The translations under genes were made by a program, and so were the position numbers. Source: Gekko japonicus (Eukaryota). From it: a stretch of DNA of 64,000 nucleotides. Below, in pieces: positions 29,701 to 52,100 of this stretch (position 1 is the stretch's first letter; each line of letters opens with the position of its first letter). The stretch spans positions 1 through 64,000 of the forward strand of contig NW_015165300.1 in assembly GCF_001447785.1 (NCBI RefSeq), written 5' to 3'. The notes beneath the pieces were generated by a model that had not been told where the DNA came from, made no database searches, and saw nothing but the letters and a program-made list of their open reading frames with translations.

Positions 29701-32092
29701 AAGGAGAGGCCTGGCCCACTCTGCCCCCCCGCCTGCCTCCTGCCCAATTTAATCAGAAAGCCCCCCCCCTCCACACACCCACAGGCAGACAGACAGACAC
29801 ACACCTGTTGTCATTCATCTGCGTGTAGCGCGGCTGGGGATCCGAATCCTGGTCGTTCACGTCGAAGCTGGCAGCAGAGTCCTGGAGAGAAAGGAGGTCA
29901 GTGCCGCCCCCTCCCCAAGACCCCCCCCCCGGGGAACTAGTTGAGGGGAGACCCCCCCCCATTCTGCTCTGTACAGGAAGAGTCCTCTCCTCCACGTCTG
30001 CCAGTCCTGCCCGGAGACTACAGGCACACACAGCCTCGGGCCCCATCCGGCCTGCCGTGCGCGGGGGGGGGGGGGGGGGCTCGGATCTGGGTTTCTGCCC
30101 CGTAACCGCTACACCACCGTGCCTTGGAGTCCCTGTGGCCCCGGGACCCCACGAGGGGCTTCTGAGGGAACTGCGGGGGGGCCTCCTCCCCACAGCTCCC
30201 CCCACAGGCAGGGCAGCTTCCCAGGAAGATCCACCTCCGGGTGCCGAGGAGGAGGAGAAGCGCACGCGGAGGTGGGACCCATGCTGCCCCCCCCCCGCGG
30301 CCCGCGCTGCCCCCCCCCACTATTGGCTTCTAGGTCCGGGTGGTTCTTCTCAATGCCGTCGTCCAAGATGGAGACCACGATGCCTCGGCCAGTGTAGCCT
30401 TGTCGCCAGGCTTCCCGCACGTTCAAGTCCCGCTGGTTCCCGTTGGCCTGGAGGAAGAAGAAGAAGAGATTGGATTTATACCCCTTGCCCTTCACTACCC
30501 GAAGGTGTCTCAGAGGGGCTCACAAACTCCTTTCCCTTCCCCTCCCCACAACAGAAGACACCCTGTGAGTTGGGTGGGGACGAGAGAGCTCTTGAGAGAG
30601 GACTGCTCTTTTTCAAGAACAGCTCTTATCAGAACTAGGGCTTGCCCAAGGTCACCCAGCCAGGTGCAAGTGGAGGAGTGGGGAATCAAACCCGGCTCTC
30701 CCAGATTAGAGTCCATGCACTTAACCACTACACCAAACTGGAGGAAGGAGAACCCCGCAGCCTTCAGAGCATGCGTCTTGGCGCCACAGCCCTCGCCCGG
30801 CTGGCCTGCCTACGGGGGGCCCCCCAAGGTGCCGTCTCCCCACGAGGGAGGTGCGGCGGAGGCCGCTCTTCTCCAGGTCTCTCAGGAGAGACAAGAGACT
30901 GCGGTGGGAGGCATTCTGCTCCGCTCAGCCACGGGCCACTTCCCCGCCCGCTCCAGCACCCCCGCTCTCTGGTCCCTGGTGGGCATTTGGACAATCCGGG
31001 CCACGTGATGCCTGATGCAGCGGCAGTCCCCTGCTGGAAACTCCACGTCTGCAGCCGCTCCGTTCTCATCCCTGACGCCTCCAGATCAAGGAAGAGCNNN
31101 NNNNNNNNNNNNNNNNNNNNNNNNNNNNNNNNNNNNNNNNNNNNNNNNNNNNNNNNNNNNNNNNNNNNNNNNNNNNNNNNNNNNNNNNNNNNNNNNNNNN
31201 NNNNNNNNNNNNNNNNNNNNNNNNNNNNNNNNNNNNNNNNNNNNNNNNNNNNNNNNNNNNNNNNNNNNNNNNNNNNNNNNNNNNNNAGTCCGGACCTCTG
31301 CAGGGGGGGCGGGGGGGCAGCCACAGCTCACATCATCGTCCCAGGGCACTGCTGCCCCTCGCCATGCCCCCAGGAGCCCCCCGCCCTCGCTTCAGGATGA
31401 CAGTCCTGGGCGGGGTCACCCAGAACAGACCGCGAAGAACGGTCCCTGACGGCCCTGCCCTGGGAACCCGCGCGGCCCACCCTCACTCACCAGGTACCAC
31501 TGCTGGGGGTACTTGGGGTCCGTCGGCTCCAGGGAGAGGTCTCTTTTCTTCCGTCTCTTTGCCACCTGCTGCTCCAGCCAGTGTACCTGAGGCAACGGGG
31601 GGGCGCGGGGGGAGAGAAGGTTTTTACGGGAGGACGGGCAGCCTCTCCAAACCCTTTCAGTCACACCAGCCTTATGGGTGCACAGAGCTTTCCTGGCACT
31701 GCGGCCTGGGTGGCACTGCCCAGGAGGCCAGCTGGGTACTCCCAACCCAGCTCTGCTATCCAGAGAGGAATGTAGGGTCTCGCAGCCCCTCCTCCTTCTG
31801 GGCACCAGGCCCAGAAGCGTCTCCGCAGACTCCAGGGCAAGCGAACAGAGGCCCCAGACGCCTCCACGGCAGCCACAGCCCAGGGGCGAATGGCAGGGGG
31901 ACCCGATCACATGCAGCTTTGCCGTTTCCCCATTTCAGCATGTCAAGCCACATGGGAATAAACAGAGCGTGCGGAACACGTACGGACGCCGGCCTTCATC
32001 TTTGAGACCTCCAGACTGGCCGACATATTCCCCTTGCCTGCCCCCCACCTTCGAGGACTGCCAACAGTCGCCATTTTTGCTGTACCCTCCCC

Positions 32093-49150: not shown

Positions 49151-52100
49151 CAGTACCCTCCCCCGCGAGAGAGTTGCCCTGACCGTGGCTGCTGCTGCTG
49201 CTGCTTTCTCCTCCTCCTCCAGTTTGGTGTGGTGGTTAAGTGCAGGCGGACTCTGATCCGGGAGAACCGGGTTCGATTCCCCCACTCGCGCCTGCTGGAT
49301 GACCTCGGGCAAGCCGTAGTTCTGACAAGAGCTGTCCTTGGAAAAAGAGCCGTTTCTGTCAAGAGCTCTCTCAGCCCCACCTACCTCACAGAGTGCCTGC
49401 TGTTGTGGGGAGGGGGAGGGAAAAGGAGTTTGTAAGCCGCCCTTGAGACTCCTTTGGGTAGAGACTCCGGGGTATAAATCCAATCTCTCCTCCTCGCAGG
49501 GGAGATCTCCATGGAGAAGGTGAAAGTGAAGCGCTATGTGTCCGGCAAGCGGCCGGACTATGCGCCCATGGAGTCCTCCGATGAGGAGGATGAGGAGTTC
49601 CAGTTCATCAAGAAGGCGAAGGAGCAGGAGCTGGAGCCCGAGGAGAAGGACGAAGAGCTGACCAGCGACCCCCGCCTGCGGCGCCTGCAGAACCGCATCA
49701 GCGAGGACGTGGAAGAGAGGTCCGCCCTGGCCGGGATCCGGGGGGAGGCGGGTGGCAGCAGCACCACTGCTGCCCCGGGGGTGTGTGTGTGAGGCTCTCT
49801 GGGGCACCCAAAGAGGCTCTGAAGCACCGGGCAGATGAGAGGAGGCACCCTGCAGGGTGGGCATGTTCTGTCTCCGGTAGGTACAGCGTGTAACGGAGCA
49901 GCTGCTTGAAAGGCCCTGGCCTAAGGCTGAGTTTATATTCTAGGCTGGCAAGGCACCGTAAGATTGTGGAGCCAGAAGTGGTGGGGGAGAGTGACTCAGA
50001 AGTGGAGGGAGAGGCATGGCACATGGAGCGAGAGGACACCAGCGAAGAAGAGGAGGAAGAAATCGACGATGAGGTACAAATCTGGTTGTGCTCTAGACTC
50101 CAGCACTGTCAGCGGTTGGGCTTTCGTGTTGCTGCATTCTTCTGAATTTCAGAAGTACGTTTTCCTGTAGGAACAAATTGTTACATGAACATATCTCATA
50201 CCAACTCAGATAATTTGTTCATCTATTCTGACTGGCATGAGTCTGTTCGTGATCCTGTAACTGAAGATTCCAAAGAATGACTGTTTTACCCATTGCCTCT
50301 TTCTGATGCAGCCACAGGGACTCTGCTTCACCCTTTCCCCTTTTACTAGGAAATCGAGCGCCGCCGTAGCATGATGCGGCAACGTGCACAGGAGCGGAAG
50401 AACGAGGAGATGGAAGTGATGGAGCTGGAAGATGAAGGCCACTCTGGGGAAGAGTCTGAGTCTGAGTCGGAATATGAGGAATACACAGACAGTGAGGATG
50501 AGACTGAACCACGCCTCAAACCAGTCTTCATCCGCAAGTAAGTGCCACTGCTGCTGGATGAGGTGGGGTGGTGTAAGTTAATTATCAAGACAACAGAGAG
50601 AGAAGGGGCAGGGAATCTGCCGCGGAAGCATTCCCTGTTTTATAACACTGGCATGGTTTCTTCTTGTTGGTAGCATAAGAAGGTGTGGCCTCTCTCGAGT
50701 TCCCCAGAAGAAGGTAGGGAGGGTACCAGATTCATGCATGGATTCTAGACGGCGGTTTCATGGATGTCTTTCTGGACAGGGCTGGGCTTAAAAAGCGTAG
50801 GGCTCACCAAAAATGTCTTCTGCAGGAAGGACCGAGTCACAGTCCAGGAACGAGAGGCAGAGGCGCTGAAGCAGAAAGAATTCGAGCAGGAGGCCAAGCG
50901 GATGGCTGAGGAGAGGCGCAAGTACACACTTAAGGTAAGAGGGAAAACAAGACTGCTTGTGTGAGGGTGGAAGAGAAGGCTGGACAGCGTCAGGAATTTC
51001 TCCATGTTGATTGACATTGCAGATCGTGGAAGAGGAAGCCAAGAAAGAGCTGGAAGAGAACAGGCGCTCTTTGGCTGCCCTGGATGCGCTCGACACTGAT
51101 GACGAAAACGATGAGGAAGAATATGAGTCTTGGAAAGTGCGGGAGTTGAAGCGCATCAAGCGGGACCGTGAGGAACGGGAAGCGTAAGTGAAGTCAGGCC
51201 AGAGCTAAAGGGCATTTTTTCCTCCAAGTACCTCAGGCCAGGGGTAAAATAGGGAGTTGTGTATGGTGGCTGCCTCCAGATGAGGGAGTCTTCTGGACAG
51301 AGGAGGGGCTGGAAGGAATATCTGTGGTGAATGCTAATGGGATTTGTATCTTTTTTAAAATTCCTTTGATCTACCTGGGAGTTTAGTTTTAGCTGAAAAA
51401 CTTGATAAAAACAGTGAGAGGTATTCTTGTAGCCATAACAAATGATGTGGAAAACAGGTGCAAGTATAAACCAATTTCTAGAGATCAAAAGCTTGCATTT
51501 CTTTTTTAAATTGGTTACTTTATCTTTTAGTCAGCTTTAAAATATCACACAAACATATTAATGCCTACAGTCTTCTAAATGTGAATCAGAGCCTCTATCT
51601 ATACCGAGAAGCAGGTTTTACATGGAGGCTGTACAACAAGCGTTACGTGTGACAATACGAGTCACATTACATTACTGTAAAATACAGCAAGAGTTTTAGA
51701 GTTAGTGTGACGACTCATTAGTAGCAAACAGTTGTCAGGGCAACTTATTAGTATGCATGCTTACTTGGGAAATACATAAATTAGTTGGAAAGCTGATTGA
51801 AAATACTTGTTTTTATTTGTGGTTTTTCTTGCCAAATGTAAGTCACTCCACTATGGTAGATGGGGACATGCACGGAGAGGTCATCTGTGCAGATCCCTAA
51901 ACTGAACTTTTCCTTCCTGTAGGTTAGAGAAGGAGAAGGCAGAGATTGAGCGGGTGAGGAATCTGACTGAGGAGGAACGCCGCGCAGAGCTCCGAGCAAA
52001 TGGCAAAGTCATCACCAACAAGGCCGTGAAGGGCAAATACAAATTCCTGCAGAAGTACTACCACCGGGGGGCCTTCTTCATGGTATGCGAGTGCTGATGG

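Follow-up and report, generated by a model that had tools for sequence, protein, structure and literature searches.

A sense-oriented Squam3B3 SINE at the 3' splice site of a FURIN intron in Gekko japonicus

A SINE of the Squam3B3 type was found in sense orientation exactly at the 3' splice site of a FURIN intron, between the ancestral intron end and the catalytic-domain exon, in a 64,000 nt stretch of Gekko japonicus DNA (positions 1 to 64,000 of contig NW_015165300.1; hereafter the window). This arrangement had been proposed in an earlier note made from the sequence, and the anatomy of the locus bears it out. The (CTT)n tail of the SINE likely forms a new and stronger pyrimidine tract for the host AG, with the exon spliced as before and the insertion tolerated. 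It is probable that the SINE entered the acceptor by L2-type integration involving microhomology at its two ends, and that the 3' end of the SINE contributes the branch point and tract, and the host the AG, while the old acceptor loses the competition. What is new is that the same SINE-at-acceptor arrangement is also present at two other exons, one of the GRIN2A type and one of the ecto-ART type; the closest known cases, the SINE of the dog merle allele and Alu insertions in NF1, both disturb splicing.

Anatomy of the FURIN acceptor

The exons in the window were matched by an NCBI protein (P0121, 'PREDICTED: furin [Gekko japonicus]') in which the catalytic exon starts at position 30447, and a genome search with the catalytic-domain exon gave a single 100% match in genome G000, with paralogues at 49-68%. 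As there is a single identical locus and the P0121 exon starts at 30447, the gene was identified as FURIN (PCSK3) and the annotated acceptor as the downstream of two AGs (Table 1). The position of the intron is common to the genomic read-throughs of other vertebrates.

The acceptor AG lies inside a 10-bp direct repeat, CTTCCTCCAG, the two copies of which place the AGs 290 nt apart. When read in the frame of the phase-0 donor, the upstream AG leads to a TGA located ahead of the DDG catalytic motif. Both of these features had been read from the sequence earlier and were found to be correct.

At the 3' end of the catalytic-domain exon (30322-30320, minus strand), the assembly is without two codons' worth of sequence, which includes the last Tyr and the usual GT donor, whereas relatives read LEANYV at this exon end (comparison with P0002 and P0005). 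The P0121 model extends to 30235, adding ~29 extra residues to the catalytic domain and so compensating for the missing donor. The missing exon end is likely an assembly error beside a run of G.

Table 1. Features of the FURIN acceptor region in the window and of two further coding acceptors with a SINE
Feature	Position	Strand	Evidence or remark
FURIN upstream exon (prodomain end, RRKKR cleavage site)	31491..31586	-	tblastn of P0121; RNA depth
Phase-0 GT donor of FURIN upstream exon	31490	-	
FURIN intron, 1043 nt as assembled	30448..31490	-	contains N gap 31098-31286
Ancestral intron end, FURIN	30738..30770	-	P0002 empty site, 8/11 residues; motif scan, score 3.4
Old branch-point candidate A, ancestral intron end	30764	-	A at -27 from upstream AG; short pyrimidine tract
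Upstream repeat copy, ending in now cryptic AG	30747-30738	-	
Squam3B3 SINE, sense orientation	30454..30741	-	starts at own CCAG, ends with (CTT)n tail
TGA ending frame from upstream AG	30510..30512	-	189 nt ahead of expected next junction
Branch-point candidate A (-29), conserved 3' end of SINE	30476	-	motif scan; putative
Unbroken 20-nt pyrimidine run	30450..30469	-	SINE tail into downstream repeat copy; sequence
Downstream repeat copy with coding acceptor AG (30449-30448)	30448..30457	-	score 13.7
FURIN catalytic-domain exon, DDG motif	30321..30447	-	Pfam Peptidase_S8; RNA depth
Internally deleted SINE copy before open 238-residue ecto-ART exon	L198, G000:C6963		8-bp repeat
Full SINE copy before 161-nt GRIN2A-type exon with GT donor	L312, G000:C6765		PDB GluN2A, E 8.6e-27

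The inserted element and the empty site

Squam3B3 has been described as a SINE with a tRNA-derived head, a B3 insertion, a length of ~271 nt without the tail, a (CTT)n tail and rare duplications, and its consensus head carries CCAG at positions 6-9 (PMC7983390). The head and B3 insertion of the FURIN copy agree by eye with the published consensus, as given in the supplement row of that report. The match to the Squam3 consensus begins at position 6, the first 5 nt, which are present in other copies, being missing. The body of the FURIN copy is ~272 nt (30741 to 30470) and is followed by the (CTT)n tail (30469-30454), and reads of other SINE copies match it up to 30741 and down to 30454. As the FURIN copy shares only 91-93% identity with the 39 full-length copies that match it best in G000, the insertion is not recent. 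Across G000, the G before CCAG is kept in 37,669 of 46,305 exact heads. Squam3A, unlike Squam3B, ends in a (TAAA)n tail. Another Squam3B copy is located in the window (49215-49494, plus strand), with its head CCAG following a pyrimidine run that is echoed by its tail.

A genomic read-through open reading frame from a relative (P0002) reads ALKVAGAFFLQ directly ahead of the FURIN exon. The flank upstream of the SINE in the window, in the same register, matches 8 of these 11 residues, and this was the sole match of 8 in ~928,000 positions of window and random DNA. The read-through indicates, at codon resolution, that the ancestral intron end adjoined the exon with one acceptor and that there was no deletion. 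A relative with an empty site and a single acceptor, which the earlier note had predicted, is thus available at the protein level from one organism, and the comparison with P0002 also confirms that what was the end of the ancestral intron now leads into a second AG, located 290 nt 5' of the coding one. A second protein search, with P0002, revealed no closer read-through.

Strength of the two acceptors

The sequence supports the proposal that the coding acceptor takes its pyrimidine tract from the SINE tail. Ahead of the coding AG lie 20 uninterrupted pyrimidines and, at -29, a branch-point candidate; no other AG occurs for 36 nt, and G follows at +1. As SINE sequence fills the whole 290 nt before this AG, and no AG lies closer upstream than 36 nt, the branch point, also assigned to the SINE in the earlier note, most likely lies there too, with the A at 30476 as the candidate. 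The SINE 3' end would bring the adenosines around -29, the pyrimidine run and the AG-free interval, and the host the AG and the G at +1.

Using an acceptor matrix of general vertebrate frequencies that was not trained on gecko sequences, the coding AG scored 13.7 and the upstream AG 3.4; the ancestral context, when given a G at +1, reached 5.5. The value of 13.7 is the highest among the FURIN acceptors scored, the best sites of the other exons scoring 1.9-10.1. The old acceptor probably loses because it has T at +1 and a short tract, and because its use needs an exon of 417 nt (compared with 127 nt). The first residue of the exon (30447-30445, minus strand) is Ala in P0121 and P0005, both from Gekko, and Ser in P0032, P0036, P0122 and P0002. 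The change from Ser to Ala gives the G at +1, and thereby strengthens the coding acceptor over the upstream one.

Origin of the junction repeat

Overlap between the tail of an element and its target has been reported for L2/CR1/RTE elements (PMC6007223). In target-primed reverse transcription of the L2 type, the CTT tail would pair with the pyrimidine tract of the acceptor, and the CCAG of the SINE head would then join the CCAG of the host, leaving a 10-bp repeat that is mostly microhomology. Consistent with this, 8 of the 10 repeat bases are the SINE's own, CCAG being from the head and CTTC from the tail, and duplication is needed for the central two bases only. As the head and tail can supply these bases, a 10-bp duplication is indistinguishable from a 0-2 bp duplication with two 4-bp microhomologies. 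Hence, of the 10-bp target-site duplication claimed previously, the repeat itself is real and 10 bp long, but the case for a full-length duplication is weakened, and the length of the repeat is no proof that 10 bp were duplicated.

It is possible but somewhat doubtful that the acceptor was copied by a complete target-site duplication of the classical kind, as in dog merle, and that the match to the head and tail is incidental. The FURIN repeat is the longest among 64 scored copies with a tail ending in six pyrimidines and CAG, where the next longest is 7 (84 copies were selected by their tails, and 20 were without a head to score), and among 25 copies with six pyrimidines flanking the head, none had a repeat of at least 7 that includes CCAG. 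The single FLQ in the relative (P0002) also argues that no deletion occurred, as a full duplication would have it. However, full duplication and microhomology give an identical sequence and splicing outcome, and only the history differs. Among copies with pyrimidines and CAG at both ends (93 copies, from which 25 flanked by SINE were dropped to leave 68 that are non-tandem), the repeat reached 10 bp in 3 and 8 bp in 9, with FURIN included. Integration with microhomology at both ends is retained here as the probable history.

Occurrence at other coding exons

G000 was screened using five patterns, namely a tail followed by six pyrimidines and CAG (84/84 examined), both ends acceptor-like (93/162 examined), a purine before CAG (10/10), TAG (21/21) and shorter copies (19/19). 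Once FURIN, duplicates and sites that run on into SINE sequence had been removed, the screened set consisted of 181 sites. Exons were detected by comparing open frames with Pfam and by reading by eye; Pfam missed the GRIN2A-type exon, which was caught by eye. The tail-plus-CAGG pattern gave 4,007 matches, mostly SINE-derived tandem arrays, and was left out of the counts. Many of these matches (L103-L127) are tandem arrays of the 3' part of the SINE with a period near 115 nt, and the arrays are likely the SINE-derived satellites of PMC10702118.

Further coding acceptors with the SINE at the AG were found at 2 of the 181 sites (Table 1). The GRIN2A-type exon has a tail-fed AG that scored 11.7, compared with 4.9 for the upstream AG, use of which leads to a stop. 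Three exons paralogous to it have no SINE at this acceptor. The GRIN2A-type exon is assembled twice (L364 and L365, in G000:C6765 and C14572), with 98.3% identity over 1,383 nt. L365 is joined to other sequence inside the SINE, and is a haplotig, a mis-join or a duplication. It was considered as a GRIN2A-type empty site and rejected, since the SINE tail is present.

The second exon, of the ecto-ART type, matched the Pfam ART family (E 1.5e-15) and an ecto-ART2 entry in the PDB (E 6.7e-37). Its tail-fed AG scored 14.2 and the upstream AG 9.5, and here too the upstream AG leads to a stop. Adjacent to this site is a second copy of the ART intron end without the SINE; it belongs to a local duplication (L241, G000:C6963, 3210-3480) in which the SINE-free copy leads into a short segment with GT at its end. 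An upstream exon of the ART gene was looked for and not found. By eye, the ART exon is apparently without the usual first catalytic Arg motif.

A donor score of at least 7 was obtained at four sites, compared with 0.6% of 1,500 random CAG sites, suggesting that some of the four may be real non-coding or fast-evolving exons. At L282, L292 and L221, a strong donor lies 105-143 nt beyond the SINE tail and CAG, and these are possible tail-fed exons. As coding acceptors these candidates were rejected: L282 has a strong donor but had no homologues among 167 candidates, L292 had 3 matches that were all tandem-repeat artefacts, and L221 and L125 had a donor score alone.

That three coding acceptors of one architecture, all with CCAG, carry the element might indicate that Squam3B targets splice acceptors, with pairing of the tail and microhomology of the head CCAG directing it to pyrimidine-tract-CAG sites more commonly than chance would. 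At the GRIN2A-type site the head match spans 7 nt across the splice junction, and six pyrimidines precede 944 of the 8,636 heads without the G (10.9%), compared with a background of 7.2% at other CCAG sites. However, this enrichment is only ~1.5-fold with tandem SINEs included, the searches selected for CAG, and no coding exon was detected by Pfam or by eye at the 10 purine-CAG, 21 TAG and 19 shorter-copy sites. By hand arithmetic with computed site densities, 0.2-1.0 coding acceptors would be expected by chance in 181 sites, against the 2 found; the expectation assumes ~190,000 coding acceptors, 65% of them with CAG and 13% with six pyrimidines and CAG. With incomplete detection, 2 of 181 shows neither depletion nor significant excess, which fits tolerance and not targeting. 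Targeting of acceptors is therefore considered unlikely, and a strong preference for pyrimidine tracts was dismissed, an enrichment of 1.5-fold being no proof of it. The tolerated arrangement would instead recur at the GRIN2A-type and ecto-ART exons at about the rate of insertion that is untargeted but not purged.

RNA reads and use of the upstream AG

Three raw RNA runs from one study (X21, X23 and X24) were analysed over 30378-31552, a stretch to which many reads of other SINE copies also matched, with 3-12% of each run read and mates counted separately. The depth in the three runs was 37, 82 and 11 at 30430 and 24, 63 and 3 at 31521, and was 0 in all bins of the unique intron (30778-31457). 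Neither FURIN junction was present among the 15 of 57 read joints listed, and the use of the FURIN acceptor was therefore deduced from depth together with the NCBI model. In X23, the deepest run, for which there is no matched DNA, all reads differ from the assembly at two exonic sites, 30430 and 31521 (C>T on the plus strand). The same change is seen in some X24 reads and in no X21 reads, X21 agreeing with the assembly at both sites, a pattern that suggests divergent populations under one species label.

The earlier note had also suggested an NMD-coupled poison isoform, and this part of it was not supported. A transcript that uses the upstream AG must cover 30570, where the SINE has a private base, and none of the 4 reads covering this position in the three runs carried the base at an exon depth of 90-130, indicating that the poison isoform is below about 3% at steady state. 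The pooled 95% upper bound is 3.3% (n=90), and for X21 alone ~12% (n=24; hand arithmetic), both at steady state with NMD active.

Use of the upstream AG at a meaningful and perhaps regulated rate, with an NMD-coupled poison isoform tuning the dose of FURIN, is accordingly regarded as improbable. Neither the old branch-point candidate (A at -27) nor the old tract has been lost, and NMD would mask the product in ordinary RNA-seq. NMD is triggered by a premature stop >50-55 nt ahead of the next junction, and the stop at FURIN is 189 nt ahead. A premature stop follows from the upstream AG in all three genes; however, a stop within an exonised SINE is the default expectation, and the absence of the private base and the difference in score between the two FURIN acceptors (3.4 and 13.7) also count against this isoform. 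The regulatory poison-exon reading is without support at present. Any leak via the old acceptor would meet the premature stop and be removed by NMD, and would be noise and not regulation.

Support from DNA reads

The presence of the SINE was supported by raw reads, as independent DNA contigs from run X1 cross both junctions with no mismatch. Contig record 1 (30378-30478) spans the joint between the exon and the SINE tail with 31 letters on the SINE side, and record 4 (30721-30803) spans the 5' joint and extends 27 letters into the SINE, which is below the 31-letter criterion. As the depth of record 4 (87.9) equals that of the adjacent haplotype contigs combined (37.1 + 48.7), the SINE is likely present on both haplotypes. 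In the ~130 nt immediately upstream of it (30774-30901), one X1 haplotype contig departs from the assembly at 3 sites and the other at 5 sites plus an indel. An artefact of assembly, with a repeat joined wrongly at a microsatellite, is hardly credible, because although there is an N gap in the same FURIN intron and the next donor is absent from the assembly, X1 contigs cross both junctions without mismatch and the second assembled copy of the GRIN2A-type exon also has the SINE tail.

Comparison with known systems

In the dog merle allele, a SINEC_Cf is inserted at the PMEL intron 10/exon 11 boundary in antisense orientation, with the complement of its poly(A) as the tract and a 15-bp duplication (PMC7349775). 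Merle and FURIN thus share a tRNA-derived SINE in a 3' splice site, a repeat holding the acceptor on both sides, a SINE tail serving as pyrimidine tract, and a second acceptor that competes. They differ in that the FURIN SINE is in sense orientation, with a (CTT)n tract and a repeat that is probably mostly microhomology, whereas the merle SINE is antisense, with a poly(T) tract and a duplication. Merle, as reported, is polymorphic and mis-spliced with a phenotype, whereas the SINE in FURIN is an old copy that showed no sign of mis-splicing; reads with its private base were absent at steady state, so that no use of an alternative acceptor of the merle type was detected.

Four de novo Alu insertions in 3' splice sites of NF1 all caused exon skipping and disease (PMC3219598). 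These resemble FURIN in that a SINE lies in the acceptor AG or pyrimidine tract, and one of the NF1 Alu insertions is in sense orientation. However, a sense Alu places poly(A) before the AG, whereas Squam3B places pyrimidines there. Introners, which are DNA elements bounded by inverted repeats, generate new introns within exons (PMC11282704). Like the FURIN SINE, they are mobile elements made harmless by supplying some of the splice signals themselves, with an AG from the target site. The FURIN SINE, however, is a retro-element, and it has substituted for the 3' end of an intron that was already there, with no intron gain.

Mammalian introns are reported to have few SINEs in the 100 bp next to exons, with a bias to donors among those within 20 bp (PMC3088655), whereas in gecko introns old SINE copies are at distance zero from the acceptors of conserved genes. 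In the available part of the Squam3B3 description (PMC7983390), no discussion of splice sites or of insertion at acceptors was found, and a literature search that covered few subscription papers returned no report of a sense microsatellite tail serving as a pyrimidine tract.

Significance

The 3' end of Squam3B has a putative branch point and a tract lacking only the AG, and the head carries CCAG, so that a sense copy landing precisely on an acceptor may be tolerated and might even be favoured. It is tentatively proposed that Squam3B is pre-adapted to acceptors, and that tens of gecko genes, FURIN and GRIN2A included, may splice on SINE signals. If so, tail length would be a mutable dial on the strength of the acceptor, and a latent poison acceptor would lie 290 nt upstream.

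In mammals, a SINE that lands on a splice acceptor usually breaks splicing, as in NF1 and merle, and is then purged. A SINE with a pyrimidine-microsatellite tail may escape this purging, as in the three conserved gecko genes in which it is at distance zero from the AG. If this is general, the chemistry of the tail would set where an element survives, and transposon sequence can replace the core splice signals of essential genes.
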